Assembly (NCBI GenBank): GCA_964611725.1
Contig: CAZTBA010000001.1
Coordinates: 1,117-65,116, forward strand
DNA from: an uncultured bacterium
Lineage (GTDB): Bacteria > Latescibacterota > CAZTBA01
Direction: 5' to 3'
DNA: 64,000 nt
Below the pieces are notes generated by a model. That model did not search any database. It was not told the origin of the DNA and worked only from the letters and a program-made list of their open reading frames with translations. How positions within the stretch are numbered: the first letter of the stretch is position 1; the number at the start of each line of letters is the position of its first letter. Below are positions 14,347-57,336 of this stretch, in pieces. The translations under genes were made by a program, and so were the position numbers.

Positions 14347-14426
14347 GATTGGGAAAAAAAGTCTTTCTTATTTGTAAGTGATGAAATTTCAGAACGATAA
14401 GGAAATCGGCCGTAGTGGGTTGCTGC

Positions 14427-14449
14427 TCAGGAATGGGAGATTCAGGAAT
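14427..14449 (-). promoter_or_regulatory. direct repeat TCAGGAAT x2 (15-bp period), candidate enhancer/UAS
   Basis: Plus strand: gcTCAGGAATgggagatTCAGGAATtg, ~85-115 bp upstream of the -24/-12 element. Confidence 0.3.
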
Positions 14450-14511
14450 TGATGCTATGGAATATGTTTCACATTTTAGAGGAATCCATTTCTTATTTTA
14501 GGATAGGGAAG

Positions 14512-14892: not shown

Positions 14893-14972
14893 TTAACAAG
14901 ACCTCCTGCTCCATCCTAAGATGTATTGAAAAAATAGCCCTGTTTGAGACCTCGTTCCAACCTGCCAGAGGT

Positions 14973-16454: not shown

Positions 16455-16494
16455 TAAAAGATTCCCCTTTCTACTCGCTGCCTGTTATCCACAC

Positions 16495-18107: not shown

Positions 18108-18522
18108 GGCGGCCCTCCATGTTTCTCCCAAGAGCACATTCGGATTCAAGAGCTTCTCGGACCACAGCACGTAATTCATTGTAGTCAAATGGCTTCGTGA
18201 GGTAGTCATAAGCCCCAATCTCCATGGCGCTCCGAACCGTGTCTTGCGAACCAAAGCCAGTGAGAATGATAACCTGGATATCCTTATCCATCGCTTTGAG
18301 TTCGCCCAATACCTGGATGCCATTGCAGTCGGGCAAATTCAAATCTAAAATAACTAAATTCGGTCTGATTCTCGCAGCAATATTCACCGCCTGATTTCCA
18401 TTTTCCGCCCAAACTGTCACATAATTATCGGAGGAAAAAATTTCTGAGAGCACGTTGAATACGTTCTTTTCGTCTTCCACGATGAGTATAGTCCCTCTTT
18501 CTTTGGGTGGGCTGGTCTTCAT
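18097..18522 (-). CDS. single-domain response regulator
   Basis: ILIVEDEKN...LVILDLNLPDCNG...YDYLTKPF. Confidence 0.85.
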   Translation of the reverse strand: MKTSPPKERGTILIVEDEKNVFNVLSEIFSSDNYVTVWAENGNQAVNIAARIRPNLVILDLNLPDCNGIQVLGELKAMDKDIQVIILTGFGSQDTVRSAMEIGAYDYLTKPFDYNELRAVVREALESECALGRNMEGRHAR

Positions 18523-18615
18523 GATATATCACCCCTATGTTACGCAAGCACGCCTACCAGGATACTCGCCTATCCTGGCACGTAGGGGCTTATGTATTAA
18601 CAGGACGCTGTTTCA

Positions 18616-19098
18616 TCATAAGCCCCTGTCTCTTTTTCTTGGCAAAATAATTTCAAGCACTCCATTCCTGAAATTTTCGACGCATTTTTCGATATCAACT
18701 TCCGGCGGCAACATAATTTCTTCTCGAAACTCTTGACCTTCTCGCTTGGCATATATAGTATACCTCTCCGGCGTCATATTCAGTGAAATATCGCCACGTC
18801 TGAACCCGCCCAGATCAATTACGATTAGTACTTCCTCGGCTTCATGAAAGACATCGACGAGAGGTCGCTTTATTCTCTTGAACAGAGGCTTTGTCTGGAA
18901 TCGCCAGTTCCGGGGCTTTTTAAAAGCCCCGGTCGGGAAGGTAGTCTCAGGCGAAGGTTGACCCTTGTCAGCCCTCAAGTGCCAGCCGCTGCTGAATTGC
19001 AACCGCAGACCAATATTCAAATGTGAGCGGCCGCGTTTGCGGTTACGCAGCTCCTGAGATACATCCCGCATCGTCCTGGGAGGAATAGATCGAGGCAT
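18616..19098 (-). CDS. Hsp20/alpha-crystallin-domain protein; start uncertain
   Basis: VDVFHEAEEVLIVIDLGGFRRGDISLNMTPERYTIYAKR...REEIMLPPEVDIEKCVENFRNGVLEIILPRK is an ACD core. Confidence 0.7.
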   Translation of the reverse strand: MPRSIPPRTMRDVSQELRNRKRGRSHLNIGLRLQFSSGWHLRADKGQPSPETTFPTGAFKKPRNWRFQTKPLFKRIKRPLVDVFHEAEEVLIVIDLGGFRRGDISLNMTPERYTIYAKREGQEFREEIMLPPEVDIEKCVENFRNGVLEIILPRKRDRGL

Positions 19099-19147
19099 AT
19101 TAATAACCCTATTTCCTAGAACCGCTGTGTGAACAGCTCAGAATTAT

Positions 19148-21274: not shown

Positions 21275-21293
21275 TTAGTGCCTCCTATAAGAG

Positions 21294-21818
21294 CTACCTG
21301 ACGCATTTGATCTCAAGAATACCATTGTTACAGGAAATGATCATCTTCTCCCCGGGATAGCTCCTGGGCAGCATAACCTCTTTGCGATATTTTTTGTCTC
21401 CTTTCTCCGCGTGAATGGTGAGCAAATCATCCTTGGCTTCGAGGCGAACATCCTCGACGCTGATACCAGGCATCTCAGCCACGACCAGGGTGTGATCTTC
21501 TTCCTCAAAGACATCTACCACGGGCTCACGGACCTCCTGGACTACGGGCTCTCCAGATTTCTCATCTCTGCGGATGTTTCCAAAAGGCTCTACCCGAAAC
21601 TTCTCGCCTCCCAAGCCGACCTTGACGTTGAAACCGTAAATACCCTTGATCTCCTTTCCTAAGCCACGAATTTCCCCAGCTTTGGAAATCTCTTGTCCTT
21701 TCTCAGCCAACTCGCCAAGATTCTCCACCAGATCTGCCAGACCCTTCAGTATCCCCCCGAGGCCAGATGTAGATTCACCCTCTGGAGGCTTGTTTTTACC
21801 TGTTTTCTTCTTGACCAT
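21294..21818 (-). CDS. Hsp20/alpha-crystallin-domain protein (second copy)
   Basis: VDVFEEEDHTLVVAEMPGISVEDVRLEAKDDLLTIHAEK...KEVMLPRSYPGEKMIISCNNGILEIK. Start set at ATG 21818 behind GAGGAGGGAG. Confidence 0.8.
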   Translation of the reverse strand: MVKKKTGKNKPPEGESTSGLGGILKGLADLVENLGELAEKGQEISKAGEIRGLGKEIKGIYGFNVKVGLGGEKFRVEPFGNIRRDEKSGEPVVQEVREPVVDVFEEEDHTLVVAEMPGISVEDVRLEAKDDLLTIHAEKGDKKYRKEVMLPRSYPGEKMIISCNNGILEIKCVR

Positions 21819-21971
21819 AATTCTCCCTCCTCTTACTAAACTTTCTGCGTAATGATTTGGAAAATCGCTGAAAGCCACTAAAGGATTGACCTTGTGCTCA
21901 GATCTTTGTTCGAATGAGCCGAAAAGTTTTTATCCCTTGTGATGAACAAGCTTGCGCAACCTCCATTTTTA

Positions 21972-30730: not shown

Positions 30731-31123
30731 TTACGCAAGCTCGATCCTTTTGTCCGACTCCCAGAGACCGTGGATGTTACATAGAGCGACAGCATGTAAT
30801 GTCCCGGCCTTGTCTGTCTTAAAGGAGAAACTGACCTCATGATTGGTATAAACCGGGCCTTCATTTGCTCCGGCAACAGACTCACCATGAGCATTGAACT
30901 CAAACTGACCGATTTCGTAGGTGAACTTATCACCGTCCGGCGAGAAGAACGCCTTGATCCAGCGAATGTGGTGCTCGGTTGTATTAGGATGTGCTATGGC
31001 CTTGCCCAGGCTCATCTTCACCTGAACCCACTCTCCCGATTTTACCTTATCAGGGCACTCGATCACAGGGACATGCTTCTCCTTTTTCCAGTCAGCCTCC
31101 TGGATCTTATCACAGATACGCAA
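30731..31123 (-). CDS. 1Fe superoxide reductase (neelaredoxin/desulfoferrodoxin ferrous-iron domain)
   Basis: EKHVPVIE...AIAHPNTTEHHIRWI...ALCNIHGLWES carry the His/Cys ligand motifs of class II SOR. Confidence 0.85.
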   Translation of the reverse strand: MRICDKIQEADWKKEKHVPVIECPDKVKSGEWVQVKMSLGKAIAHPNTTEHHIRWIKAFFSPDGDKFTYEIGQFEFNAHGESVAGANEGPVYTNHEVSFSFKTDKAGTLHAVALCNIHGLWESDKRIELA

Positions 31124-34095: not shown

Positions 34096-36663
34096 TTACT
34101 CGGACTTAGTCAGTTCCCCAACGATCTCCCTGAAGAGCTTCTGCTTCTCTTCTGAGCTTAGATTTCCCTGGATGTTTAGTTGCTCCTCTGGTGGCTTCCT
34201 GACCTTTTCCACCCCTGGAACATCCATCCTCCATTCTGCCTCTACTTCCTCAATTGGGGTGGCATATTTGGCTCTACAACGCTTAATTATCTCCTGGCTG
34301 AAATCAGGCATATCGAAGCCTTCCTCCTCCCATTCTGGAGGCAGGGCTGACATTGTAAAGGTATGTTCGTCTACCTTGACCAAAGTTTCATATGGTGGTA
34401 GCTGGGTGAAATGTTTGGCCTGGAACTTCTCTCCATACTGCCTGGACATGAGCGAAGCATACTCAGCTCCCAGGCGGAAGCTCACAATTGTGCCAACATT
34501 GCCAAAAATTGAGCTTCTAATTTCCGCTGGGATCTGGGCCATGTTCTGATGGGCCATGATGAGGCTGATGCCGTATTCTGCTCCCATCGAGAGGATGTCC
34601 GTGATCGCCGGGGTCAGGTACTCCTGCAGCTCGTCTAAGAAGATATAAAAGTCGCTGCGCTTCTCGACAGGGCGGTTCATTGCTGAGAGTTCCAGTTCTG
34701 TGACTAACATCCTACCCAGGATTGCCCTACGTTCCTGGCCGATGTCTGAAAGATCCACTATGAGGATGCGATTGTTAGTGACAATGTCCTCGAAATCTAA
34801 TTTGCACTCCTTTTGACAGAGCATCCTGCCTATAAGTTCATCCCCGACAAACTGATCCAACCTGTTTATAACTCCCTCTGCGGAGACATCATATCTTAAC
34901 CTCGGATCTATGCGCTCATCTATACTTCTCCAGAAGCGTATAAGGTGGCGGTTCTTCTCTGGATCGAGCTGGCTTAAGGTCTCCTTCCGGATTTCCTTAT
35001 CGTCCAAAAATCTTGTGATATCTCTCAATGTAGCTCCTTCGATTTCGAAGAAGACAAGCATAGCGTTTCTCAGAATCCTTATCATCCTGGCAGTCAAAGG
35101 ATCGCCTCTATAAAATGTGATTTTATCCACAAGCATTATAAAATCCTGGATGACATCACTCCTGGGCCGGTGTTTGCCAAGCTGGAAGATATTGAGAGCG
35201 AAAGGATAATCACGGTCATTCGGCCTGAAATATATCACATCATCTACCCTATGTTCTGGAACCAGCCTCAGGACTGTTCGTGCTAAACTTCCCTTCGGAT
35301 CAAAGGGTGCTATCCCCTTTCCTCTGTCCATCACATCCCGGATCGGGTGGGTTCCCAGCGTGCTCTTGCCCATTCTTGTAGCCCCGGCTATGAGCATATG
35401 CCTGTTAAGCCTAATGTCAGAGATCCGGATCGGTATTTCCTGATTCCTATACCTATTGACACCAATTAATACCCCTTCGGAAAGATCCGTCGGTGCTCCC
35501 ACCTGTGGGATCTTCACTCTTTTAAGCTTATCGCTTTCCACCTTTGCTGTGGGCAGGTGAACTAGACCAGTAAGTTCCGTGGGGTTTAGGAGTGCGCCAT
35601 ACCGGTAGCTCAACCTTCCTCGAATCAGTTCCCAGAGATGGCTCCCTTCCTCAACAGGGATAAATCTCTGGAACTCGGTGTTAAATAGCTCAAGGTATCT
35701 ATAAAGCCGATACATCGCCTCTGCAGAGCTTCCTGCTGTGCGAACCTGAATGGCAAAGAAAGGTTCCTGGGCTTTCTCAGTGGCTATTGCCCTAAGATCT
35801 ATCTCTGCTTCTCTCGGGAAGCCTGTTACCTCATCCATCACCGCCTGCTTGAGATTTGCTGTCCAGTCCCCTCTGCATTTTGTCACCAGTATCTGCAATA
35901 TGGCTACTTCCTGCTCTGTCAGCACCTCCATCACTCCTGCAAGATATACCAGGAGATCCTCTCCCTGAAGCGCATCACGGAGCGGGAAAAGATGGGAGTC
36001 AGCTAAGCTGTAAGACCAGATATAACGAGGGATTACATTCCCAAGCATATCCTCTCCCGATATCTCAAACTGGCTTTTGGGGTATTGGGTATACAAAAGC
36101 CCCATAAGGATGTTCAGGAAAATCTCCGGACAGGCAATCTGCAGGGTCAGTTCGTCATGATCGGCTATCACTTCGAATGAGGTAATGTAGTCGCTTGACA
36201 GCCCCACGAGAACGCCCAAAGTGTTCTGTGGCTGTACATCCTCCTCAAACATAATTGCCCTGATAAATCGCAACGGCATGGGATTATATGGCCTGGCCCT
36301 AAAGTGCACGGGAACAATCTCTCTCTTCTTCAAGAGTCTCGAAATTGGTGAAAGACGGATCGGTCCTGTGTAACCCAAAACGTATCTATCTGCATCATTA
36401 AGCTCAGTAGAGCGAAATGGCTCATAGGGAGGTTCTAAGTGTATGGGATAAGAAAAAGGTATTAGATTACCCTGGCCACGCCTTAGCTCTGAATAACGCT
36501 TGAGCTCCCGCAGCTCCTCCATTGAGGTAATAGACCCTGAATCCCTGCTCAAAAGGCTATCCAATTTTCGCTCATGCCGCTCCCACAGGGAGCCTGGTTC
36601 TTCTATCTCCACTCTTCTTCTGAGTGGAGGTTTTCCGCTTTTAAGGAGAGTTGCTTTAGACAT
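34096..36663 (-). CDS. TraD/VirD4-like type IV coupling protein (FtsK/HerA-superfamily ATPase) with a ~420-aa unassigned N-terminal region
   Basis: Walker A LIAGATRMGKST, then FDPKG; Walker B FYIFLDELQ; then ISLIMAHQNMAQI. Confidence 0.7.
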   Translation of the reverse strand: MSKATLLKSGKPPLRRRVEIEEPGSLWERHERKLDSLLSRDSGSITSMEELRELKRYSELRRGQGNLIPFSYPIHLEPPYEPFRSTELNDADRYVLGYTGPIRLSPISRLLKKREIVPVHFRARPYNPMPLRFIRAIMFEEDVQPQNTLGVLVGLSSDYITSFEVIADHDELTLQIACPEIFLNILMGLLYTQYPKSQFEISGEDMLGNVIPRYIWSYSLADSHLFPLRDALQGEDLLVYLAGVMEVLTEQEVAILQILVTKCRGDWTANLKQAVMDEVTGFPREAEIDLRAIATEKAQEPFFAIQVRTAGSSAEAMYRLYRYLELFNTEFQRFIPVEEGSHLWELIRGRLSYRYGALLNPTELTGLVHLPTAKVESDKLKRVKIPQVGAPTDLSEGVLIGVNRYRNQEIPIRISDIRLNRHMLIAGATRMGKSTLGTHPIRDVMDRGKGIAPFDPKGSLARTVLRLVPEHRVDDVIYFRPNDRDYPFALNIFQLGKHRPRSDVIQDFIMLVDKITFYRGDPLTARMIRILRNAMLVFFEIEGATLRDITRFLDDKEIRKETLSQLDPEKNRHLIRFWRSIDERIDPRLRYDVSAEGVINRLDQFVGDELIGRMLCQKECKLDFEDIVTNNRILIVDLSDIGQERRAILGRMLVTELELSAMNRPVEKRSDFYIFLDELQEYLTPAITDILSMGAEYGISLIMAHQNMAQIPAEIRSSIFGNVGTIVSFRLGAEYASLMSRQYGEKFQAKHFTQLPPYETLVKVDEHTFTMSALPPEWEEEGFDMPDFSQEIIKRCRAKYATPIEEVEAEWRMDVPGVEKVRKPPEEQLNIQGNLSSEEKQKLFREIVGELTKSE

Positions 36664-37021
36664 CTATGGTCACCTCGCATTGTGGACACGTGATTTCGTG
36701 TGTGTAGGTTTTGCAGCTTCGACATCGGGAGAGGATATGCCTGACAGTGTTTGAACCACACTGACAATGCCATAACCCATTCAGATCGATTTCCAGGCCA
36801 CAGTTGTAACACCTTTCCGTTGAAATAAACAGCCGCTGTATTGCCCTTCTATAGCCAGGATGTAAAAAAACCAGGAAATGGTTTCCAATGATGAGCAGAC
36901 CTATGGCATCGTTCGTGTCATCTCCCGATGAGCCTATTATTAGCACTACTATCATCAGAAATACGTTGGAAATGATGAAATACCCCACGGAGATCAGATG
37001 CCGTCTGTTCCGTAGCTTCAT
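36656..37021 (-). CDS. membrane protein with a C-terminal double zinc ribbon
   Basis: Two hydrophobic helices, then CYNCG...CQCG...CRSC...CPQC. Confidence 0.5.
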   Translation of the reverse strand: MKLRNRRHLISVGYFIISNVFLMIVVLIIGSSGDDTNDAIGLLIIGNHFLVFLHPGYRRAIQRLFISTERCYNCGLEIDLNGLWHCQCGSNTVRHILSRCRSCKTYTHEITCPQCEVTIDV

Positions 37022-38295: not shown

Positions 38296-38970
38296 CTATA
38301 TGGGTCGCACGGCCTGGGCTTGGATGCCCTTACCTGTTGCATAGAGCGGTATAAAGCTTACCTGCATACCCGGCGTTAAAGACCCTGCCACTTGAGATCT
38401 ATGCATGAAGATCTCTGTGCCAGTCCCATCCTGTATGATAAACCCAAATCCTCTCACCGGGTTGTAGAACTTCACCCTACCGGTGCGACGCACACCCTGG
38501 TCGGCAACAAAGACCTCTCTGCTCCCTCTTCCTCCGGTCTTTCTGGCAAAGTGTCCGTCATCCCTGCTGATGCCTTGAGGACGGTGGTAAGTTGGCGCAT
38601 TTGACCAATTGATCCAGAGCTGATCGTGATAGAATCCTGATTTCCCATTTCGGGTTATAACGATGTTCATATCAAACGGTGGCTCTATGGGCACTATGGC
38701 AATGCCGTTCGATGTATCCAGGCTGAACCTCTGACCGTTGCCATTTGCAGAAAAGTTATAACTGTACTCAGCTTTGACGACCTGCTTTCCGTTTACCTCC
38801 TGGAAGAACTTGACGGATAAGCCTTTCAGGTCATCGAAACCCAGCATCATCGCAAAGTCGTGCTGGTAGTGATCCTCTGGATGAGGGAGATCCTTGCCAT
38901 AGGATCTGGCCAACTGGGTGATTTCTGATATGAGCTTCCGCGACATGATGTTTGCATCTTGAGGTTTCAT
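38296..38970 (-). CDS. fusion of an unassigned ~150-aa domain with a C-terminal cold-shock domain
   Basis: GRVKFYNPVRGFGFIIQDGTGTEIFMHRSQV...GMQVSF carries CSD RNP1/RNP2-like motifs. It starts 21 nt after the E1 gene. Confidence 0.7.
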   Translation of the reverse strand: MKPQDANIMSRKLISEITQLARSYGKDLPHPEDHYQHDFAMMLGFDDLKGLSVKFFQEVNGKQVVKAEYSYNFSANGNGQRFSLDTSNGIAIVPIEPPFDMNIVITRNGKSGFYHDQLWINWSNAPTYHRPQGISRDDGHFARKTGGRGSREVFVADQGVRRTGRVKFYNPVRGFGFIIQDGTGTEIFMHRSQVAGSLTPGMQVSFIPLYATGKGIQAQAVRPI

Positions 38971-38991
38971 GATTTATCTCCTGGGTTAATG

Positions 38992-40467
38992 TTACGATTT
39001 AATGCTCTCTGCTTCCACTTCCACCACTTTGCTTCCTGCTTCCATATCAGTGGCCTTAGGGATGGCTCTCGGATTTCCCCTGACGGCTTTGAGGTAATCC
39101 GGAACCAGTTCCAGATCGCCAAGCCCCAGGACACCTTCTGGACTGCAGATCGGGCAGGAAGGATCTGTAGACACTTCTATATGCATCACCTCCCCTTTGA
39201 GTTGATCGTATGCCACGTACCTGCGGATTTTCCTATACGGGTACACGACATTGTGGATCTCTGCCACAGCCAGTGAGGCCATGGTGGCATTGATATGATA
39301 GACCGCAGGCGAGGGCATATCGCGTATATAGCCCCGCTTGATGAGTAAACTTCTCTCCTCCTCACTGGATAGTTCCCAACTTGCCATCTGGGTATCGAAA
39401 ATGGACGCACACTGGAGACACCACTCCCCTACCGGTGGGATCACGCACTCTCCGCTTATGTCTTTGATATTTCCCTCACTGTCCACATCTATGTTTACCC
39501 CAACGTGAACTATTGGGATCAGATACTGCGCCGACAGCCGGTTAGAAACCAGGCGGCTTGCGTGTGTATCCGTGCACACGACAAGAAGGTCACATCCCTT
39601 CAGGGCATCTATGGATTCTCTGTCAAAGAGCGATTGGTCCAGTATCTCAGCTTCAGCCTCAGGCGCAGCCCTTCTGATATTTCTCGCAGCAACTATTACC
39701 TTTGGCGTGCCTCGTTTGGCATCCCAGTTCGTTGCTCCTAAAAGGCGATTGAGGTTTGTCCTCTCTACCCTGTCGTTGTCCACAAGGACCCACTTCCTTA
39801 CGCCCAGACGTGTCAATTCTTCGCATACCACACTTCCTGTTCCACCCAGACCGATAAGGCCGATGCGAAGCTCGCTCAAACGCTTCTGAAAAGCCTCTCC
39901 AAAGGCCATAACCTGCCTGGAAAAGACCTCATCAGACTTTTCTCTACCCGGTTCATTGCCATCCCTGATTCTCACCTCTTCATATGAGCCAAACCTTACA
40001 GCATCTGCCTTTTCTGCTACAGGACCGCCAGCATGTATTCTCCAGATCCTTGCATCTAATGCCTCTCTTGTCATTACCACAGAGCCGTATAAAGTCCCAG
40101 GTATTTTCCTGCCAAGATAGCTGGCCATTCCCCTTTCATAGCTATCATCAATGCCCGAGAATCTCACTACAGGGCTGTTGGACACATGCGTATGGAAGTC
40201 AATCTGTGAAAGCCCCTCCCGATGGGCCATTTTTAGTATATGTTGGTTGATTTCATCCCTTAGCTCCAACCGGCCAGCGCTTTGCTCAACAAATGCATCT
40301 TTGGGAAACAGGATAAAATGCCTGCCCAGAAGATGCACTTCACCTCCCACCTTGCTTATGCCGCAGAGTATGATAGCCATCTGTTCTTTCGCTCTATCAC
40401 TGAAGAGATGATCTTTCAATTTCTGAGCCATCTTTTCTGTCAATATGATCTTGTTCGGCATCGGCAT
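38992..40467 (-). CDS. JAB/JAMM metalloprotease fused to an E1-like (ThiF/MoeB-family) adenylating enzyme
   Basis: JAMM: EQMAIILCG...HTHVSNSPVVRFSGIDD (E, HxH, SxxD). E1: IGLIGLGGTGSVVCEELTRLGV...LVDNDRVERTNLNRL, plus CLQC and CPIC zinc-site pairs. Confidence 0.85.
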   Translation of the reverse strand: MPMPNKIILTEKMAQKLKDHLFSDRAKEQMAIILCGISKVGGEVHLLGRHFILFPKDAFVEQSAGRLELRDEINQHILKMAHREGLSQIDFHTHVSNSPVVRFSGIDDSYERGMASYLGRKIPGTLYGSVVMTREALDARIWRIHAGGPVAEKADAVRFGSYEEVRIRDGNEPGREKSDEVFSRQVMAFGEAFQKRLSELRIGLIGLGGTGSVVCEELTRLGVRKWVLVDNDRVERTNLNRLLGATNWDAKRGTPKVIVAARNIRRAAPEAEAEILDQSLFDRESIDALKGCDLLVVCTDTHASRLVSNRLSAQYLIPIVHVGVNIDVDSEGNIKDISGECVIPPVGEWCLQCASIFDTQMASWELSSEEERSLLIKRGYIRDMPSPAVYHINATMASLAVAEIHNVVYPYRKIRRYVAYDQLKGEVMHIEVSTDPSCPICSPEGVLGLGDLELVPDYLKAVRGNPRAIPKATDMEAGSKVVEVEAESIKS

Positions 40468-40473
40468 AGTCTC

Positions 40474-40944
40474 CTAATCATTCGTTAGAGTTTCCCTCAC
40501 CATGTTAAGAAAAGTCCACAGATTATCTGGTTGTCGGTAATCTGCTGAAGCCTTCCAGCCTCCCTGGCCAGAGGCAATACGCACACAGTACCAATACCAC
40601 CCCGCTTTTGTTAAATTTGGCGCTCCATGATAGCTTCTGCCTGTCAGATGGCTGTCAGAGCCTCCTCCGGTCAGCTGGAACTTCTTGTTAAGGTAAAAGC
40701 CTATGGGCGGTGTGTCTGGATAGCCCTCCGGGAAGACTATCATCAACTTGCACCATCTCTTCTGCCAGCGTTCAGGAAGGGCATATCTGGGGATCACAAG
40801 CCAGTCCCCATTCTCTTCGTCGTATAACACACCGCCGGCTTTTGCAAAGCGTGGTGCGATCATCAAGATCTCATTGTCAATCCGCTGCTTGCGTCGACCT
40901 GGCTGCACTTTACCAGAACCAAATAATGATTCCCAAATTGACAT
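40474..40944 (-). CDS. prokaryotic E2-like (UBC-fold) protein
   Basis: IVFPEGYPDTPPIGFYL...GWYWYCVRI...DNLWTFLNMV: a UBC-like YP(D)xPP flap and a candidate catalytic Cys. Lies between the Ubl and E1 genes. Confidence 0.7.
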   Translation of the reverse strand: MSIWESLFGSGKVQPGRRKQRIDNEILMIAPRFAKAGGVLYDEENGDWLVIPRYALPERWQKRWCKLMIVFPEGYPDTPPIGFYLNKKFQLTGGGSDSHLTGRSYHGAPNLTKAGWYWYCVRIASGQGGWKASADYRQPDNLWTFLNMVRETLTND

Positions 40945-41006
40945 TTACTTTCACCTCCTTTGAAGGGAGCAGGATAGCCTTCTTCGGCCATCCTACTCCC
41001 TAACCC

Positions 41007-41213
41007 TCAACCTTTGATGCGTTTTGGAGAGTCCACGAACATGTCTCCGTCTCTCACATGGACCTTGGAACCGGGTTTGAGGCTATAGTTACCCTCCTTT
41101 GTCTTATTGACCACAATCCGCCCGTCCTCGATCCCGCCAAATTCGCGGATCTCCTGCTCAGAGGTATTTGAAGGTATGCTGACCCTTCTACCATTAATGA
41201 TTGCTGTTGCCAT
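41007..41213 (-). CDS. 68-aa ubiquitin-like (beta-grasp) protein ending in a free C-terminal Gly
   Basis: MATAIINGRRVSIP...EIREFGG...VHVRDGDMFVDSPKRIKG-stop. The pattern resembles ThiS/MoaD/multiubiquitin-type modules. Context is E2 and E1. Confidence 0.65.
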   Translation of the reverse strand: MATAIINGRRVSIPSNTSEQEIREFGGIEDGRIVVNKTKEGNYSLKPGSKVHVRDGDMFVDSPKRIKG

Positions 41214-41214
41214 T

Positions 41215-41877
41215 TTACACCTCCTCTACTGTTTCAACAGTTTCTGCTACCGCTTCCTCAATCACCGATTCATCCTCATCCGGCATCTGGCTGAGGTCAA
41301 TGAACGAGTTCACTGCCTCCATAAGGTCCTGCGAGATCGCCGCCGGCGTCGCCGCAACTTCCACCCTGATCCCCCTCATCCTCAACCGCTCTGCAAGGGG
41401 GACGTAATCGCCATCACCGCTTGCGATTATGGCAATATCTGGCTTGACCTTGTCTGTGTAATCAGCCGCATCCAGGGCTAAAGCGACATCGAAGTTACAC
41501 TTTAGCTTCCCGTTTTCAACAAACTTGGCAAGTTTTGACCGGACGATGAAGCCTCCGCTCCTCAGTGACCGTGCTTTGGCTTCGCCTTCCTCCACCTGCC
41601 TCGGATCAATTCCCATGTAGACGAACGCCTCCAGTAGATGCCTACCCTCGCTCAGGTAGTCCCTGAATCTGAATGGATCCAGACGACGCCCCAGGGCTCG
41701 TAGTCCTGCCTCTATATTGTATAGTTCGATAAAGGCTACTGCTTTTTCCAACTTTGATTCGGTAAACATGCGCATATCATTTCTCCTTTCTTCTGGCAAT
41801 ACTCCTCTTTGGCTGGTAAAAGACCCATCTCCTACCATCCGGAACTCATTAACACTGGCCATCTTAGAATTTCCCAT
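41215..41877 (-). CDS. NYN/LabA-like (PIN-related) predicted RNase
   Basis: VAFIELYN...NFDVALALDAADY...IAIIASGDGDYVPLAERLRMRGIRVEV carry the conserved Asp clusters of NYN/LabA. Start is ATG 41877 behind AGGAGGTG, with 41775 as the alternative. The stop is 1 nt before the Ubl ATG. Confidence 0.75.
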   Translation of the reverse strand: MGNSKMASVNEFRMVGDGSFTSQRGVLPEERRNDMRMFTESKLEKAVAFIELYNIEAGLRALGRRLDPFRFRDYLSEGRHLLEAFVYMGIDPRQVEEGEAKARSLRSGGFIVRSKLAKFVENGKLKCNFDVALALDAADYTDKVKPDIAIIASGDGDYVPLAERLRMRGIRVEVAATPAAISQDLMEAVNSFIDLSQMPDEDESVIEEAVAETVETVEEV

Positions 41878-42040
41878 TAGCTTCTCACCTCCTTTCAAAT
41901 GATTTTCCTTTTACCCTATATAACGACAGATTGGAATTTTTCTTGCAGTCACCTTAGAGCATATTTTTGCATCAATCTGGTTGGTGTCTGATCTCGTTAT
42001 TCTCTACTTTGTATATGTAACGATACTTTGCTTTTTTTCT

Positions 42041-42080
42041 TGCAGAAAGAAAAAGGCTTCCGAAAAACTTCGGAAGCCTT
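42041..42080 (-). terminator. strong Rho-independent terminator ending the CHAT/sigma/anti-sigma operon
   Basis: Minus strand: AAGGCTTCCGAA-gttt-TTCGGAAGCCTT, then TTTTTCTTTCT, 29 nt after the stop at 42109. Confidence 0.75.
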
Positions 42081-42108
42081 ATAAAGAAACAGCCTATGAC
42101 GTTTATTC

Positions 42109-44307
42109 TTACATTAACTCCTCAATTATTGTTCTAAGAAATTCTCTCTGGAAAAGAAGGTCCCGGAAATCTTCAATTTTCTGCCTTTCAAGTGGTTTTG
42201 AATGCACCGAGCCATTTCGATACTTTTGTACTATCATATGCAATTTGTTTTGGAAACCTTTTTCAAAGAAAAGCTCAGACTTTCTATGAACAAAAACAAA
42301 CAACTTCCCATAGACTTCCCATTTTTCCCTTGATCTCTCACCTGAGGCTTGAGCAAAAGTATTGGCAAGCTCGTGAAGTGTAAGAGACTTCTCACCGGCT
42401 AAGACAAACTGACCTTTGGAGTTCTGGAGAATTTTTAGTGTGACTCCTGACTTTCTTTGTTCTTCGAAGTCTTTAATTAGTATACTCTCAATCTTATTTC
42501 TATCTCCCCTTCGACAACTGAGCCACCTGTCCACTGCCCAAACAATCTTATCGTTTAGAAAATGTTCCACAGCTTTGCTATACATTGCAGCAGCAGCAGC
42601 ATAGTCCTTAGCCTTAACGTTTTTTAGAATCTTATATAAGAATTCCCCAAAAACCAGAGTTCTACCGCTTTCTCCCATAAAGTTTAGATTATCTTCTCCA
42701 CCAACTCCTAGACTTACTATCTCCTGAGTCTTTTGATAATCTTCCTGATAGACTCTGCAAAGATCTCCAGCAATTCCCTTAACCTGCCTACTAAATCCGT
42801 CGCTTTTCTGCTGAAGATCCTCTTCAGAAGCTTTATCTGCATCCCTAACAATGAAAAGGTTCTTAAGTTCACTGATCTCAGTGAGCTTAGCGTCTATATC
42901 TTCTACCTTCTTCTCAATCCTCCCTACCCTCTTCACCAGAGAGACCAGATCTCTGGCAATCTTAGGAAGAATGAACTTTTCTAAAATCTCCAGCCTCTTC
43001 TTTCGCTCTTCTTCAAGCTCCCTTGCCAGTTTTTTTGTCTTTGCCTTTACCGCCACTTCATATAAATCTCTTAAGGGATGGAGGGTGGGGTTTAGTGTTT
43101 TAGCGGTTTCAAAGCTACTTATAACCCTTTCAAGATCTTTGGGAGGAAGCTCGCTAAGATCACGCCCGTATTCTAAGACCATTCCTACACCTGCATAGCC
43201 AACATACCAACCGCTGCGCTCTCTTGTAAGCCGCTCAAAGACAGGTAACGCCTGATCATATTGCCCATTCTTGATATGTCCAATGCCTCTCACTACATCA
43301 GCTAACATCGGGTTGTAGGACTCAATTCTGCTCTCAATATCCTCTGAGAAGTCCTTAATAATGGCCTTAGGAGCCGCTTCCGGCTGGTAACCCCTGATCT
43401 GGAGGCCAGCTTTATATTGCTCAGGATCAACATCACGTAAAGTCTTCACCACAGCCAGAAGCTGCAATGCTTCTGAATCTTCAGGTTCAACTTTGAGCAC
43501 AGAGGCAAGTAAATCCTCGGCAATCACATAGTTTCCATGATCGATGGTCTTCCTCACGTCGATAAGGCGTTCCTCAACAGGAAGGTCCCTTATCGTGAGA
43601 GCAACCTCACCAATTCTTTCACCTTCTTTTTCAATCATGAATGTATAGGAACCAAATTTCATTTCACGGAAAGTTACTCGACCATGCCGGTCGGTTCGTC
43701 CCGCGTTTTTCTTTACCTGTCCTGTCTCCTGGAACCAAACATCAACCCCTCGGACCGGCTGGTCAGTCTGGAAGTCTTTTATATAGATTCTGACTTCTAA
43801 TTCCTCCAGGGTCTTTTTACTTACCCTTACCTGAACAAGATAATCACCAAGCCTCTTTTTGACTCCTTCAAGGCCACCCGATGGAACCGGTGCTCCACGC
43901 ACCATCTCAAGCTCTTTTAATCCGCCTCCCAAGACAACTTCACCGGTAGTCTCGATTACCTTTAAAAGGCCGTCTACAATACCAATAACTATTTGAAAAG
44001 AGCTTTCTTTCTCTCTGTTGAGTGCCTGCCTAATCAATCCCATAATCTTCACGTTCTGAGCCGGTTCAACCGAAATCTCAGCTATATGACTTAGAGCTTC
44101 TTGGAGGACTTCCACCTCTCCCCTACAGTATTCACATGTTTCTATATGTGCTTCTACAAGATCCCGGTGCTTCCCCTCAAGGAAACCATCGACATATTGC
44201 CCAATCTCCTCTTCAGTAAGGCAAAATATCCCTTTCTCTGAGGACGTTTTCCTCTCAGCATATTCTCTAAGGAGCTTATCGATATCGACGTTGTCCAAGT
44301 ATTTCAC
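42109..44307 (-). CDS. cytoplasmic anti-sigma-like protein: N-terminal zf-HC2, beta-sandwich, TPR/coiled coil, C-terminal HEPN-like domain; start uncertain (44364/44307/44298)
   Basis: HIETCEYCRGE is the H-x3-C-x2-C anti-sigma zinc finger, found right after the sigma gene. VRIYIKDFQTDQPVRGVDVWF..GRTDRHGRVTF is CarboxypepD_reg-like. C-terminal QKYRNGSVHSKP has the RNxxxH motif. No TM segment seen. Confidence 0.6.
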   Translation of the reverse strand: MKYLDNVDIDKLLREYAERKTSSEKGIFCLTEEEIGQYVDGFLEGKHRDLVEAHIETCEYCRGEVEVLQEALSHIAEISVEPAQNVKIMGLIRQALNREKESSFQIVIGIVDGLLKVIETTGEVVLGGGLKELEMVRGAPVPSGGLEGVKKRLGDYLVQVRVSKKTLEELEVRIYIKDFQTDQPVRGVDVWFQETGQVKKNAGRTDRHGRVTFREMKFGSYTFMIEKEGERIGEVALTIRDLPVEERLIDVRKTIDHGNYVIAEDLLASVLKVEPEDSEALQLLAVVKTLRDVDPEQYKAGLQIRGYQPEAAPKAIIKDFSEDIESRIESYNPMLADVVRGIGHIKNGQYDQALPVFERLTRERSGWYVGYAGVGMVLEYGRDLSELPPKDLERVISSFETAKTLNPTLHPLRDLYEVAVKAKTKKLARELEEERKKRLEILEKFILPKIARDLVSLVKRVGRIEKKVEDIDAKLTEISELKNLFIVRDADKASEEDLQQKSDGFSRQVKGIAGDLCRVYQEDYQKTQEIVSLGVGGEDNLNFMGESGRTLVFGEFLYKILKNVKAKDYAAAAAMYSKAVEHFLNDKIVWAVDRWLSCRRGDRNKIESILIKDFEEQRKSGVTLKILQNSKGQFVLAGEKSLTLHELANTFAQASGERSREKWEVYGKLFVFVHRKSELFFEKGFQNKLHMIVQKYRNGSVHSKPLERQKIEDFRDLLFQREFLRTIIEELM

Positions 44308-45073
44308 CCCCTCTACCCATGATCTTCTTAAGCTGCTCTCTGGCCCGTGTAAGGTGAGAACCAACAGTTCCTACCGGTATGTTAAGCCCTAAGGCGATCT
44401 CCTTATAGCTCTTCTTCCCTTCGTAGTGGAGTTCCAATATCCTTCGCTGAAGCGGCTCTAATTTACTCATTGCTTTATGCAGGAGGTCAAATAGTCTTTC
44501 CTCTTTGCCAACATCCTCCTCAATATCGATCAAGGTCTGTTTTTCCTTCGATTCTTGCTCGTAGTCATTCATAACTCGCAATCGCCGTGCAATTTTCTTC
44601 TTTTCGTCCAGAGCAAACCACCTTGCCCTTTGGTAAAGCCAGGTCGTAAACTTGATTGTCCAGGCATATTCTCTAAGTCCTTTAAAATTATGGCTAATTA
44701 ACTTTTCAAGATAGAATTCTCCTACAATATCTTCAATAAATTCTTGACTCTGATCCTGATATATTTTCCAAACCGCTGACAAAATAAGTTTTTGGAAATG
44801 ACTTACAAATTCCTCCCAGGCTTTCTCATCTCTATTAAGGCAGCGATCGAGGATGTCCTTGATTTGAACTGCTTCCCAAAGTTCATCCTTTGCCTTTTTG
44901 TCGCCATTCCCACATCGCTCAATCGACCTTTCAACATATAAATATCCCTGATACTTCTGTAACAGAGCTTCTTTGGCCTGACAATCACCACTGAAAGTCT
45001 GATCAATAAGCTCAAAATCTCTCTCTAAAGGCAGATTCAAATTTACCCTCTCAGAAATCCAAAAGTCTGACAA
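44276..45073 (-). CDS. sigma-70 family (ECF-like) RNA polymerase sigma factor with a ~75-aa N-terminal extension; non-ATG (TTG) start in the track
   Basis: Region 2: EKAWEEFVSHFQKLILSAVWKIY...FTTWLYQRARW. Region 4: LEPLQRRILELHYEGKKSYKEIALGLNIPVGTVGSHLTRAREQLKK. Confidence 0.8.
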   Translation of the reverse strand: MSDFWISERVNLNLPLERDFELIDQTFSGDCQAKEALLQKYQGYLYVERSIERCGNGDKKAKDELWEAVQIKDILDRCLNRDEKAWEEFVSHFQKLILSAVWKIYQDQSQEFIEDIVGEFYLEKLISHNFKGLREYAWTIKFTTWLYQRARWFALDEKKKIARRLRVMNDYEQESKEKQTLIDIEEDVGKEERLFDLLHKAMSKLEPLQRRILELHYEGKKSYKEIALGLNIPVGTVGSHLTRAREQLKKIMGRGGEILGQRRYR

Positions 45074-45183
45074 AATAGAATACTATTCTACAATTCTCTC
45101 TTACTTTTATCGTTTCCCCTTTTCCAAAGACAGATCACCTATTCTAAAAGCAAAAGCGTTGATAGTCGAGTTTATTTGAGACC

Positions 45184-46905
45184 TTAATTCCCCTCACGGA
45201 ACCACTTTGTATCAGCCCACTCTCTTCTTAGCTGCTCAAAAACCTGCCTATACCTTGCTTTTATACCTGAGTCTGAGGTTAAATTCGTAAGACGAAAGAT
45301 ATATTGGGCCACAGAGTCTGCTAAAACATGTCCTGCCAATTCTCTTGTCTGGTCGATAGTAAAAGAAGAGGAAAGTTGCTTTTCAAGGGCTTTTCCTATG
45401 TGCTCTTTATCAAAAAGCTGGAGTATAAAGGCAGCACGTAAGGGCGGCCTTGTATATCCCACACAAAGTGCATCAGCAAGATAATGTATAGCCCAGGTGT
45501 TGCCGCTATTTTTCTCTGCCCAATATCGCATCTCATAGCCGTTGTGAATTGATACAAGCAGGAGAAAAGTCAAGGACTGCTCATCAATCTCTATCCCACC
45601 CTCCATAACACGGCGTGCCTGATCCAACAGATTTCCCTTATCAATCCCAGGATATTTACAACCTCTCTTTACCCAGTTATCTTTTGCTGCTATAATCTTT
45701 TTCAATGTGGACAATTGTCCAGCAGCCCTTTTCCTTCTTCGAGTAAGCGGCTTCAGGGTAAACGCAGGATCACCATAAAGCATATAAGGAGCCCAGAAGA
45801 GCTGGTCAAAACCGTAGGAATCCTGAATAGATTTCCTTGCCATTCTCAGAGAACTGCCCATGCTATTGCCTGAAAAAAGGCTCTTATAAAATTCCACAGC
45901 AAAATGTGCACTTGGTTTATCGAGTATTTTGCAGAAGGTTCCGATGTAGTGCTTCACACCTGACATTGCGAAAGCGCTGGCCAATCCAAATGACTTGGCG
46001 TCATATATAAACTGTTCCTCCCAGTTAGAATGGGTCCTCTTATAATCCTTCATAGTACCACTATCGCAGGAATTTGAGAACACAAAAAGAGGTGCTGGAG
46101 AAATATTACTGATCTCAAAACAAGGGCATATCTCCTCTACCTCTCCACCTTTCATTGACAGGACCCAACCGTTTCTTTCAGGTTCCTCTGGATCAAAGAC
46201 AGAATGGCCTATGAAGTGCACGATATGGTAATTATCACCAACCTCACAGATAAGATCAGACAAATTACGCTTGCCGCTTAAGGTTTTTACTTCAATTTGC
46301 CATTCCCCTTCCGCTGCCGCTTCTTCAAGCTCCTGTTTGATACTCTCAGCTTCGTTTCTTGCTTTACCAAGACCACCTGTGGGATCAGCAATAATGAGCA
46401 TCCTCAATTTCTGCCGGGATACCTTCTTTTCGGTTACCTTGCTCTTGACAGGTGTACCAATATATCGACCCATATTGAATTTGAGACAGAGAAACTCTTC
46501 TCCGTCAAACAGAAGTTCCCAAGGGATGTTAAGGAGATTACCAGACTCTGAACTAATCCAAAGTGAAAGATCTGTGTTTTTGCCCTTTCCAAGAAGTTCT
46601 TTCAGATGGATCGGCAAGAAATGGTTAAACATAGCTCTACCAACAGTCTTCATCTCCCCTAAAACTTCGCCTGTCTCCTGCATTAGTCCGTCCGAGGGTA
46701 AACCTCTTAAAGTTTCCTGGAGATTAAAGCTACCCATTGTTTCCGTTGCTTTCTCACAAAGTTGCCTTATAAGATCTGATCTAACCGGACAATCTGTGTC
46801 AAGAAAGGTTGTTGATGATCCCTTCTGCATTACGACAAAGTTAAGATTATCCACATCTCTTCGGGTGACAAGGATCTCCAATGACTCACGTTGCTTCTTA
46901 GACAT
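45184..46905 (-). CDS. CHAT-domain (caspase-fold) protease with unassigned N- and C-terminal domains
   Basis: LRMLIIADP...YHIVHFIGHS (catalytic His context)...LFVFSNSCDSG (catalytic Cys context)...YIGTF..WAPYMLYGDP. Confidence 0.8.
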   Translation of the reverse strand: MSKKQRESLEILVTRRDVDNLNFVVMQKGSSTTFLDTDCPVRSDLIRQLCEKATETMGSFNLQETLRGLPSDGLMQETGEVLGEMKTVGRAMFNHFLPIHLKELLGKGKNTDLSLWISSESGNLLNIPWELLFDGEEFLCLKFNMGRYIGTPVKSKVTEKKVSRQKLRMLIIADPTGGLGKARNEAESIKQELEEAAAEGEWQIEVKTLSGKRNLSDLICEVGDNYHIVHFIGHSVFDPEEPERNGWVLSMKGGEVEEICPCFEISNISPAPLFVFSNSCDSGTMKDYKRTHSNWEEQFIYDAKSFGLASAFAMSGVKHYIGTFCKILDKPSAHFAVEFYKSLFSGNSMGSSLRMARKSIQDSYGFDQLFWAPYMLYGDPAFTLKPLTRRRKRAAGQLSTLKKIIAAKDNWVKRGCKYPGIDKGNLLDQARRVMEGGIEIDEQSLTFLLLVSIHNGYEMRYWAEKNSGNTWAIHYLADALCVGYTRPPLRAAFILQLFDKEHIGKALEKQLSSSFTIDQTRELAGHVLADSVAQYIFRLTNLTSDSGIKARYRQVFEQLRREWADTKWFREGN

Positions 46906-47454
46906 AAAGCTTCACCACCAGGAGTTTAGGTTTGGACAGAACTAACGGAATTTATTTGAGATTTGGTCAGAATTCCTTCCTCAACTGTTCAATAAAGGAT
47001 TAGAATAAGGCCTCACAGCCTTTGCCTTCCTAAGTATGGAAAATTCCCATTTTCTGCTGCCAGATATAATGCGATCCAGGATAGGAGTTTGGATAATAAC
47101 GGAACAATAAACAACGTTAAGATCAATTGATAGACACTTAATTCCTATTTAACAATGATTTATATTCAATCAAGCCTTTTGACATATTTTCACGTTGAGC
47201 GAGTTTGTCGGCCCCGGGAAATTGCTTCGCAGCCAAAAATCCAGAGTTTACCCAGGCGTGAGAGTACTTTTGAGTTGACCAATGCACGTTGTGTGGCCAA
47301 AAAGGTCTTCTGTGGGAGACCTGTAAGATTGGATTCCCGTTAGTGTTGTTTTCTGTTCCAATGATTGTCACAGTCCAACTACTGCTTAGCTTCACTTTCT
47401 CAGCACCCGTGCAAAACTATCGATAGAATCAAATGGTAATTGATCATAAGACTA

Positions 47455-56739: not shown

Positions 56740-57336
56740 TTATTCCTCGAAGTCAACCTCCTGCTGGATCCTCAGAGAATCCTCTTTTGTGAGTGTTGAA
56801 AGGTATCTCATAACCATTGTGGTTGAGGCGTGTCCCAGATGATGCTGCAGGGTCTTTGGATTTCCGGTCTGGCGGAGCCTCTCGATTGCATCTGAGTGTC
56901 TTAAGAGGTGAGGATAGACTCTTTTGGGGAGACCTACCTTCTGGGACAGTTCACGCAAGATCTGCCAGGCCCTCTGACGGTTTATGGGAAAGAATTTATC
57001 CTGAGCTTCGAGCTTCTCCTGGTAGGCATATGCCTGTAGCTTTTCCGAAAGCCTCTCTGGACAGGCAACCATCCTGAGCTTTCTCCCCTTTCCGATGACT
57101 TCCAAAGCCGGCCTGCCTTCAAACTGCCTTATCTTGGATGGTGATAGAGAGAGAGCCTCTGAGATCCTGAGGCCGGTCTGATACAAAACCTGTATCAGGA
57201 GGGAGTCCCTCTCCCCTTTCCTACCCTTCTTAGCCTCTTCAATTAGAAGATCAGCCTCTTCTCTGGTAAGATAAGGGACGATGCCGAATGCCTTTGTGAG
57301 GGCAGTTTTCTGTGGGATAAGTGCTTTGTTGTTCAT
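56740..57336 (-). CDS. short (198-aa) tyrosine recombinase, catalytic domain only
   Basis: GLRISEAL (Arg I), GKGRK (Lys), HLLRHS (His-x-x-Arg II), LGHAS (His), VMRYL (Tyr nucleophile). Confidence 0.85.
   Translation of the reverse strand: MNNKALIPQKTALTKAFGIVPYLTREEADLLIEEAKKGRKGERDSLLIQVLYQTGLRISEALSLSPSKIRQFEGRPALEVIGKGRKLRMVACPERLSEKLQAYAYQEKLEAQDKFFPINRQRAWQILRELSQKVGLPKRVYPHLLRHSDAIERLRQTGNPKTLQHHLGHASTTMVMRYLSTLTKEDSLRIQQEVDFEE

Follow-up and report, generated by a model that had tools for sequence, protein, structure and literature searches.

A CHAT protease/sigma/anti-sigma operon upstream of a Bub-related ubiquitin-like conjugation operon on a mobilisable island of an uncultured Latescibacterota bacterium

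Gene content of the locus

The present study concerns a 64 kb stretch of DNA from an uncultured bacterium of the Latescibacterota (contig CAZTBA010000001.1, positions 1,117 to 65,116), herein called the window, and, within it, eight consecutive and co-directional open reading frames (ORFs) on the minus strand of a genomic island. Operon 1 encodes a CHAT protease, an extracytoplasmic function (ECF)-type sigma factor and an anti-sigma factor, and operon 2, which follows it, encodes a predicted NYN RNase, a candidate ubiquitin-like protein (Ubl), an E2-like protein, a JAB::E1 fusion and a cold-shock-domain (CSD) protein. An earlier note on this DNA had proposed that the two operons form one system, in which a protease-gated sigma switch, independent of CRISPR, drives Ubl conjugation and an RNase. 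The eight genes described in that note were all recovered with identical coordinates, none of the eight proteins contained a transmembrane segment, and each operon is real and belongs to a recurrent cassette family of its own. The features of the locus are the following.

45184..46905, minus strand: CHAT protease, 573 aa (ORF and Pfam)
44276..45073, minus strand: ECF-type sigma factor, 265 aa (ORF and TIGR02937)
42109..44364, minus strand: anti-sigma factor, 751-aa ORF, 729 aa in the database call (Pfam and NCBIfam anti-sigma models)
42053..42080, minus strand: intrinsic terminator closing operon 1, with a 12-bp stem, a 4-nt loop and a T-tract (sequence)
42016..42045, minus strand: distal promoter-like element, CTGCAAGAAAAA-N10-TCGTTACA, in the 32-nt repeat 42014-42045 (motif)
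41919..41948, minus strand: proximal promoter-like element, CTGCAAGAAAAA-N10-TCGTTATA, in the 32-nt repeat 41917-41948 (motif)
41215..41877, minus strand: NYN (LabA-like) predicted RNase, first gene of operon 2, ORF 41215-41898 (Pfam NYN)
41007..41213, minus strand: 68-aa Ubl candidate, equivalent to BubA, C-terminus ...PKRIKG (invariant P-x-R-x-K-G)
40474..40944, minus strand: E2/UBC-like protein, Prok-E2_E (Pfam E 1e-6)
38992..40467, minus strand: fusion of a JAB/JAMM peptidase and an E1 adenylyltransferase, BubCD homologue (PDB 9ea4, E 3e-43)
38296..38970, minus strand: CSD-fusion protein, 224 aa (Pfam CSD, E 1e-9)

Operon 1 and its relatives

The CHAT domain of the protease spans residues 88-380 (Pfam E 2e-25), and its catalytic dyad, H234/C280 (VHFIGHS / SNSCDSG), is invariant in 13 sequences, which bears out the original CHAT call. 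The nearest homologues are 31-40% identical to the window protein across the CHAT domain alone; residues 1-87 and 385-573 are peculiar to the window protein, in which Pfam gave no match to a tetratricopeptide repeat (TPR). The sigma factor scores 82.8 bits against the ECF model TIGR02937 (cutoff 42.9; profile positions 2-164) and matches Pfam r4_2 with an E value of 6e-16, in agreement with its description as a sigma-70/ECF-like factor, and its sigma2-sigma4 core (residues 85-251) follows an N-terminal extension of ~80 aa. Within this extension (44834-45073), three degenerate copies of a 'GD/RD-x2-A-x-E-x-L/W' motif, which normally opens ECF region 2, look like internal duplications of the sigma2 N-terminus. 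The non-coding gap 5' of the CHAT gene is unusually long, 549 nt (46906-47454), with a sigma70-like promoter match at 47120-47093 and neither an Rfam match nor the TGCAAG motif that is described below.

The anti-sigma gene is placed directly after the sigma gene and overlaps its 3' end. The zinc finger that had been proposed for its product was found as a zinc-binding anti-sigma (ZAS) motif, H73-x3-C-x2-C80, in a protein that is cytoplasmic as judged by the lack of transmembrane segments; the zf-HC2 match reaches 22.5 bits, barely above the Pfam cutoff of 22.2, and NCBIfam anti-sigma models, including weak RsrA/ChrR-type ones, also match. Behind the finger lie a beta-sandwich (~aa 190-260), TPRs (~aa 264-385) and an all-helical C-terminal domain (aa 556-751). 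An ordinary homologue search with the 751-aa protein returned the protein itself alone, and an exhaustive search of cluster representatives was used instead; residues 23-260 then matched more than 100 representatives of short proteins of ~210-250 aa, two of which were scanned and gave zf-HC2 and/or beta-sandwich matches. In the C-terminal domain, the RNxxxH motif reported previously was located as YRNGSVH at aa 715-721. This domain matches just four proteins, with YRN-x3-H invariant in all five members, and a profile search gave no Pfam and no PDB match; its PADLOC matches are weak ('TPR' PDLC02907 and Cas13a, E 0.02), and an AlphaFold2 (AF2) model from the five-sequence alignment is helical, with a low-confidence pLDDT of 53. 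The YRN-x3-H family (window 42112-42699) matches the C-terminus of PDLC02907 'TPR', with E values down to 8e-6 for the relatives, and therefore may already belong to a candidate defence protein.

A sigma or sigma-like gene and a gene for a zf-HC2-type or equivalent protein (~220-290 aa) lie immediately 5' of the CHAT gene in six of the eight nearest homologues examined (loci L090, L092, L094, L095, L097 and L102); L096 has neither beside its CHAT gene, and L103 ends at a contig edge. In L090, L092, L095 and L097, the sigma and the anti-sigma (residues 23-260) are homologous to those of the window (E 1e-9 to 2e-15), the window sigma matching the sigmas beside the nearest CHAT homologues with E values of 2e-15 to 6e-11, and the trios of L094 and L102 match by architecture only. 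The neighbours of these trios are unrelated and varied (VIT/VWA-sortase, DZR zinc-ribbon, CsgG), and none of the trios is near CRISPR. Operon 1 is, in other words, a member of a recurrent, CRISPR-independent sigma/zf-HC2 anti-sigma/CHAT cassette, although the window copy differs from the other trios in three respects: the gene order is permuted, with CHAT first; the termini of the protease are unique; and the anti-sigma is ~500 aa longer, owing to the TPRs and the C-terminal helical domain. CHAT is not mentioned in the 2021 ECF classification paper.

Operon 2 encodes a candidate Ubl conjugation pathway

The identities that had been proposed for the proteins of operon 2 held in large part. The NYN assignment is well supported (Pfam E 4e-20), with D137, D143, D162 and D164 conserved. 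The 68-aa ORF ends in RIKG, and the C-terminal Gly that had been noticed lies in a P-x-R-x-K-G motif which is invariant in 16 relatives; in a clade of ~32% identity the same protein is fused to the N-terminus of E2 and ends in ...RTKG ahead of it, so processing by JAB would be needed there, as for BubAB. The E2-like protein has the canonical layout H99 ... C120 ... W130-x-P (Prok-E2_E, Pfam E 1e-6), with C120 invariant across 59 sequences and H99 97% conserved. Its homology to canonical BubB is evident from hhalign against a BubB alignment made from plasmid records (97.4%, E 9e-12), which also shows that the Cys loop is an insertion relative to BubB and that the W-S-x-H of BubB is not kept in the window family; in a PDB search, the alignment to BubB was confined to the N-terminal half.

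The JAB::E1 fusion (JAB, aa 1-170; E1, aa 182-439; ThiF E 1e-37) aligns over its full length with Citrobacter BubCD (PDB 9ea4/9ea5; E 3e-43; query 5-414 to chain 7-408). Pfam JAB was not detected in the window protein itself, and the fusion is confirmed by this alignment, by PF14464 in many of its 97 homologues and by the JAMM residues E28/H92/H94/S104/D107, which are invariant in the family. The crossover loop of E1 has no Cys and contains Y380, the counterpart of BubCD Y370 in the alignment and invariant across 20 sequences, and the only invariant Cys residues are those of a zinc site (C350/C353/C438/C441). Together, the tyrosine of the E1 and the cysteine of the E2 suggest a mixed relay, in which a Tyr oxyester on E1 would precede a Cys thioester on E2.

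The last protein of the operon is, as proposed, a cold-shock-domain fusion, with the CSD at aa 162-224 (Pfam E 1e-9, PADLOC CSD_V) behind an N-terminal domain of aa 1-161; a single-sequence AF2 model had a pLDDT of 32, too low for use, and no homologue was found in the 89 related loci described below. The CSD is similar to the models for the retron Se72 effector and for PADLOC CSD_V, and the N-terminal 160 aa (38488-38970) give a sub-threshold bacHORMA_1 match (E 1e-3, aa 5-77).

Relationship to Bub and other conjugation systems

Type I Bub operons encode a Ubl and an E2, which are often fused, a DUF6527 protease and a JAB-E1 protein that has no catalytic Cys (Ye et al., bioRxiv 10.1101/2024.11.21.623953). 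According to the same study, the Bub E1 uses Tyr370 and the E2 uses Ser333/His335, with oxyester intermediates, and antiphage immunity has been demonstrated for Bil and inferred for Bub. Several likenesses connect operon 2 with Bub. First, the order Ubl, E2, JAB::E1 is the same, and both are borne by mobile elements. Second, Y380 corresponds to Y370, the JAMM residues are kept, the crossover Cys is missing in both, and the E2 is homologous to BubB. Third, the fused Ubl-E2 of the relatives would need cleavage after the conserved Gly. The differences are found in all parts of the cassette. The E2 of the window family has an invariant Cys (H99...C120...W-x-P), whereas BubB has W-S-x-H; the E1 keeps a four-Cys zinc site, which BubCD lacks; the conserved leading gene codes for the NYN RNase; the window Ubl is a minimal one of 68 aa, which Pfam does not call multiubiquitin; and the regulators are sigma/anti-sigma/protease or of the STAND/CARF type, in contrast to CapH/CapP or WYL in Bub. 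DUF6527 (BubE) had no match in the eight window proteins at E<=0.1 and none in the characterised conserved neighbourhood clusters, and canonical plasmid Bub operons have DUF6527, with CapH/CapP regulators in place of NYN. On the strength of this combination, namely Bub homology with a Cys-bearing E2, no DUF6527 and a leading NYN gene, the operon 2 cassette is, by sequence comparison, a distinct sister family of Bub.

The earlier note had pointed to Bil (BilABCD) and CBASS Cap2/Cap3, in which the E1/E2/JAB chemistry predicted for operon 2 serves antiphage defence. However, the E1s of those systems have catalytic cysteines, with an E2-E1 fusion in Cap2 and an IAD-AAD-CYS arrangement in BilD, and the window E1, with its Tyr and no such Cys, instead makes operon 2 a relative of Bub. 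Membership of Bil or Cap2 was rejected because the PADLOC E1-E2 matches cover the shared adenylation core alone.

Intergenic region and the putative sigma promoter

The 12-bp-stem terminator and the ~160-260-bp non-coding gap that had been described between the operons were both located, the former at 42080-42053 on the minus strand. For NYN, the likely start codon is the ATG at 41877, preceded by an AGGAGG ribosome-binding site, which sets the gap at ~230 nt. Between the terminator and NYN stand two 32-nt direct repeats, 97 nt apart, each of the form CTGCAAGAAAAA-N10-TCGTTA, i.e. TGCAAG-N16-CGTTA. Two conserved boxes on either side of a variable spacer are the pattern of an ECF promoter, and each repeat can be read as a -35 box TGCAAG, a 16-nt spacer and a -10 box CGTTA, with the proximal element ~43 nt 5' of the NYN ATG and the distal element 97 nt further 5'. 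The pattern TGCAAG-N16-CGTTA occurs twice in the 64 kb window, both times here, against an expectation of 0.02.

A shared motif, TGCAAG-N16-(C/T)GT(C/T), was observed in intergenic DNA, correctly oriented, beside homologous CHAT-associated sigmas in two of the trio loci: L095 has TGCAAG-N16-CGTCTA twice (1719-1747 and 2364-2392; ~0.002 expected in 437 nt of intergenic DNA), 5' of the anti-sigma and CHAT genes, and L090 has TGCAAG-N16-TGTCTC once (6566-6594). A search of a set of 94 loci found no copy, and the other matches across 2.1 Mb lie, by position and with no systematic check, mostly in coding DNA. Chance appears a very unlikely source of the recurrence of this bipartite motif beside homologous sigmas. 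A second locus, L002, shows the same architecture with another sequence, two 40-nt direct repeats 99 nt apart (7454-7493 and 7553-7592) 5' of its NYN operon, and no comparable tandem repeats were found upstream of NYN in four loci that lack a sigma gene. L011, a possible second Lon-type locus, ends at a contig edge and has weak repeats only. ECF sigmas typically regulate adjacent genes. Thus, the sigma factor of operon 1 probably controls the NYN operon through the tandem promoters, as far as the motif comparison can tell.

The position of the L095 sites also bears on how the sigma would be released. Since they lie 5' of the anti-sigma and CHAT genes, CHAT there may itself be a sigma target, as expected if the sigma were freed without proteolysis, the ZAS finger sensing redox or thiol stress like RsrA and CHAT being a co-regulated effector or processing enzyme. 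The H-x3-C-x2-C motif and the weak RsrA/ChrR-type matches of the anti-sigma fit such a sensor as well. However, the tight linkage of sigma, anti-sigma and CHAT in six of the eight nearest CHAT homologues argues for a functional trio, the CHAT dyad is intact and protease-triggered release has precedents; we consider the non-proteolytic alternative quite improbable.

Distribution of the NYN-Ubl-E2-JAB::E1 cassette

Relatives of JAB::E1 were found in 89 loci with the conserved order NYN-Ubl-E2-JAB::E1. The scan used an 11-sequence JAB::E1 alignment, a 20-sequence alignment being too diverse, and a profile scan of genome contigs gave six loci. NYN is the first cassette gene in most of the relatives with upstream sequence. 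Fifty-three of the 89 loci, those with a flank of at least 3 kb, were informative for neighbours. In 30 of them the cassette adjoins RT-Cas1 (RT, reverse transcriptase), Cas2, Cas4, RAMP and Cas6 genes, with Cas10 in L033, L034 and L047; in 14 it lies directly 5' of, and co-directional with, genes for a type IV coupling protein (T4CP) and a Replic_Relax relaxase, with an integrase nearby; and nine have neither kind of neighbour. The window cassette belongs to the T4CP/relaxase clade. The description of the system as CRISPR-independent therefore stands for the window and for the CHAT trios, which are free of CRISPR, and needs qualification for the relatives of operon 2, over half of which, among the informative loci, are in type III CRISPR-Cas loci.

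The regulators that precede the cassette elsewhere are diverse and include helix-turn-helix (HTH) proteins of the NB-ARC STAND and TPR kinds, as well as a sigma54 activator whose N-terminus gives a weak CARF-like match. A divergent XRE-type HTH::NB-ARC STAND NTPase gene stands immediately 5' of NYN in L049 (6887-8326) and in 15 other loci of the CRISPR-linked clade B, HTH-TPR proteins being found elsewhere. In L033 (6682-8187), and also in L031, L034 and L020, a Sigma54_activat plus HTH_8 protein with a weakly Csm6-CARF-like N-terminus is encoded just 5' of the NYN cassette, L033 being a type III CRISPR locus, and such an activator could be a transcription switch responsive to cyclic oligoadenylate (cOA). 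A further protein of ~776 aa, with an N-terminal CSD fused to RAMP, is encoded near CRISPR-linked cassettes (L013 13028-15358; clusters in L014, L028, L030, L042, L044 and L045); since the CSD fusion of the window is of another kind, there are two unrelated architectures in which a CSD protein goes with the cassette.

NYN, ThiS, Prok-E2 and ThiF have been listed among CRISPR-associated genes, and the part of that report which treats this neighbourhood gives the association and no mechanism (Altae-Tran et al. 2023, PMC10910872). By its domain labels there, the neighbourhood has the same four genes; the window copy differs in having no cas gene or array, in its mobile-element clade and in its sigma-switch neighbour. 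No mechanistic study of the NYN/Ubl/E2/JAB::E1 cassette was found in the literature. The distribution suggests that the relatives of the cassette are type III CRISPR-Cas accessories or mobile-element cargo, habitually placed behind varying threat-sensing transcription regulators.

The 14 loci with T4CP and relaxase genes might be taken to mean that the cassette serves the mobile element, in the control of transfer or establishment, in anti-defence or in the exclusion of competitors, the sigma switch tying it to the life cycle of the element. A JAB::E1 homologue is plasmid-borne in 80 records, 43 of which are conjugative plasmids, the four inspected being canonical Bub operons (no phage record encodes a JAB::E1 relative), and in the window itself operon 2 is followed by DUF2637, p121 and T4CP genes. 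On the other hand, 30 of the 53 informative loci belong to type III CRISPR-Cas with RT-Cas1, which points to immunity, the island of the window carries a Type III restriction-modification (R-M) system, a typical defence cargo, and the related Bub and Bil systems are tied to antiphage immunity. A role in the service of the mobile element is accordingly regarded as unlikely.

The island and its surroundings

As the earlier note had described, the island carries an integrase, a T4CP and a Type III-like R-M system (Mod/Res), in addition to an HSDR_N protein. PADLOC was predicted to recognise parts of the locus at most, and indeed no complete system was called. The integrase ORF (56740-57336) encodes 198 aa with the catalytic domain only, and a truncation is possible; a comparison of the island ends (~31-32 kb and 57.3-57.6 kb) gave no att-like direct repeats. 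p121 (36656-37021) is a small membrane protein with weak, sub-threshold Zn-ribbon matches, which is kept beside T4CP in the mobile-element cassette copies L016, L017, L020 and L032.

No cas gene, CRISPR array, RAMP, tRNA or Rfam RNA was found within the 64 kb window. The statement that the window lacks cas genes, arrays and nucleotide cyclases holds for the first two, and a GGDEF diguanylate cyclase is encoded at 1547-3049, beyond the island. The flanking chromosome (7875-21878) carries a gas-vesicle cluster (three GvpL/F, a GvpH-like protein, a GvpN-like AAA protein, ArsA and a CDC48-type AAA protein), and a desulfoferrodoxin encoded at 30731-31123 suggests an anaerobic host.

Discussion

Herein, we propose that two separately recurrent cassettes are wired in series on an integrative, mobilisable island, the CHAT/anti-sigma/sigma switch acting upon the Ubl/RNase operon, and we give this proposal somewhat better than an even chance. 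First, at rest, the N-terminal zinc-finger domain of the anti-sigma would sequester the sigma, as may be expected from knowledge of the family. A cytoplasmic cue would then activate CHAT, the sensor being perhaps the window-specific part of the anti-sigma (its TPR and C-terminal domain) or else the C-terminal domain peculiar to this protease, and CHAT would cleave the anti-sigma and free the sigma, by analogy with Csx29/Csx30/RpoE, CalpL/T/S and DdvA/DdvS. Second, the free sigma would start transcription at the two tandem TGCAAG-N16-CGTTA promoters, for which the comparative motif analysis speaks, and these would drive NYN, Ubl, E2, JAB::E1 and the CSD protein. Third, JAB would trim or recycle the Ubl at its C-terminal Gly, and E1 would adenylate the Ubl, with Tyr380 probably the carrying residue, like Tyr370 in BubCD. 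The Ubl would pass to Cys120 of E2, where the invariant, canonical Cys makes a thioester the most likely next intermediate, and then be conjugated to a target. The role of effector, or of conjugation target, might fall to the NYN RNase and possibly to the CSD protein, and the likely role of the whole is inducible defence or inter-element conflict.

Several results weigh against this proposal. The cleavage of the anti-sigma by CHAT is drawn purely from analogy. A homologue of the window CHAT, sigma or anti-sigma was found in none of the 89 cassette loci, and a sigma/anti-sigma of any kind in only one of the 39 loci whose upstream DNA extends to 3 kb or more. As for the motif, it is absent from the CHAT-trio loci L092, L094, L097 and L102 (0/4), the L090 copy has TGT instead of CGT, the sigmas of L095 and L090 are just 23-25% identical to the window sigma, and no copy precedes the CHAT or sigma genes of the window, so the usual signature of ECF autoregulation is missing. 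As for the proteins, the window NYN has E58 at the family's first catalytic Asp and A139 at a family-conserved Glu; these two changes, D58E and E139A, both at acidic positions that the family conserves, leave the RNase activity uncertain, and the nuclease may be weakened or altered. The assignment of the 68-aa protein as a beta-grasp Ubl is unverified, its profile having shown no significant similarity to PDB, Pfam or an E. coli ThiS sequence, and the same holds for the identity of the N-terminal domain of the CSD protein and for the HEPN reading of the anti-sigma C-terminal domain, which comes from the motif. Finally, the want of any complete defence system among the PADLOC calls belongs here as well.

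The absence of co-occurrence is an outcome that the earlier note had itself named as telling against its reading. As none of the 89 cassette loci has the CHAT operon, the composite is not a conserved unit: it is a unique, or at any rate rare, joining of two modules, and neither a catalogued nor a conserved eight-gene system. It might even be asked whether the operons are mere neighbours, carried as independent cargo in a variable region of the island, with the sigma acting on other genes or on nothing nearby and the repeats being the operators of another regulator or a duplicated housekeeping promoter. Such an explanation accommodates the 0/89 count, the unrelated genes beside CHAT trios elsewhere, the strong terminator between the operons, the lack of an autoregulatory motif copy and the low identity of the sigma to those of the motif-sharing loci. 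Nevertheless, a bipartite motif which recurs intergenically beside homologous sigmas would very probably not be due to chance, ECF sigmas tend to act on adjacent genes, and L002 offers a second sigma-adjacent locus with the same tandem-repeat architecture. In L002 (2374-7640), the sole other Ubl-cassette locus with an adjacent sigma/anti-sigma/protease, a sigma gene, two zf-HC2 paralogues (65 and 195 aa) and a gene for a 1162-aa Lon_C/TPR protease are divergent from an AdoMet_dc-GNAT-NYN-Ubl-E2-E1 operon. Mere neighbourhood is thus a serious contender that we nonetheless hold to be rather unlikely. The idea of a protease-gated sigma switch driving the Ubl/RNase operon is consequently supported by the motif upstream of NYN and by known parallels, and opposed by the 89 loci; the interpretation in the earlier note is partly supported, and the locus is not a categorically new system.

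The proposed switch, in which CHAT gates the sigma that serves operon 2, has parallels among known systems. In Craspase, Cas7-11/Csx29 (TPR-CHAT) cleaves Csx30, which releases the ECF sigma RpoE (PMC10028731). As in Craspase, the genes for a cytoplasmic CHAT protease, an ECF sigma and an inhibitor of that sigma are linked in the window, and release triggered by the protease is proposed, whereas the window lacks Cas7-11, a CRISPR RNA (crRNA) and a TPR on the protease, and its inhibitor is of the ZAS type, with no direct comparison with Csx30. Membership of type III-E Craspase was rejected, as the window contains no cas gene, array or RAMP and the CHAT protein gave no TPR match. DdvS/DdvA of Myxococcus xanthus, which controls a CBASS/CRISPR island (PMC11506125), likewise ties an ECF sigma and a zinc-finger anti-sigma to a CHAT domain and to the expression of a defence island. 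However, DdvA is one membrane-spanning protein, whose TPR-CHAT part is periplasmic and whose action involves an RseP-dependent step, whereas in the window CHAT is separate and all parts are cytoplasmic; the DdvS regulon comprises CBASS and type III-B, whereas the proposed regulon here is the Ubl/NYN operon. CalpL/CalpT/CalpS (a SAVED-Lon protease, an anti-sigma and an ECF sigma of type III CRISPR) follows the same logic of a triad, and L002 pairs a Lon-TPR protease, zf-HC2 and sigma with the Ubl cassette, but the window has CHAT and not Lon, no SAVED or other cOA sensor and no CRISPR.

A more far-reaching version of the proposal is offered tentatively, and we are inclined to doubt it: a wholly cytoplasmic sensor of CHAT, ECF sigma and a giant anti-sigma would be hard-wired by tandem promoters to a ubiquitination branch that combines a Tyr-oxyester E1, a Cys E2 and NYN, and which elsewhere is an accessory arm of type III CRISPR-Cas with RT-Cas1. 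If this were true, the branch would stand, in evolution, between the thioester and the oxyester Ubl cascades, and it would be a defence effector whose sensor-regulators can be exchanged.

Thus, the most interesting content of the locus is an uncharacterised Bub sister family and a testable link between a sigma and its promoter. First, the family, NYN-Ubl-E2(Cys)-JAB::E1(Tyr) with no BubE, is large, and through it the origin of the unusual chemistry of Bub becomes testable. Second, it connects type III CRISPR-Cas loci that have reverse-transcriptase adaptation modules with Ubl conjugation and an RNase, an association that has been listed before and never explained. Third, the window provides a compact, CRISPR-free, cytoplasmic protease/anti-sigma/sigma switch with a predicted cognate promoter and target operon, which suits the study of CHAT sensing. 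The many alternative regulators upstream of the cassette suggest a general rule, by which transcription of the effector is held off until a sensor has responded to a threat.

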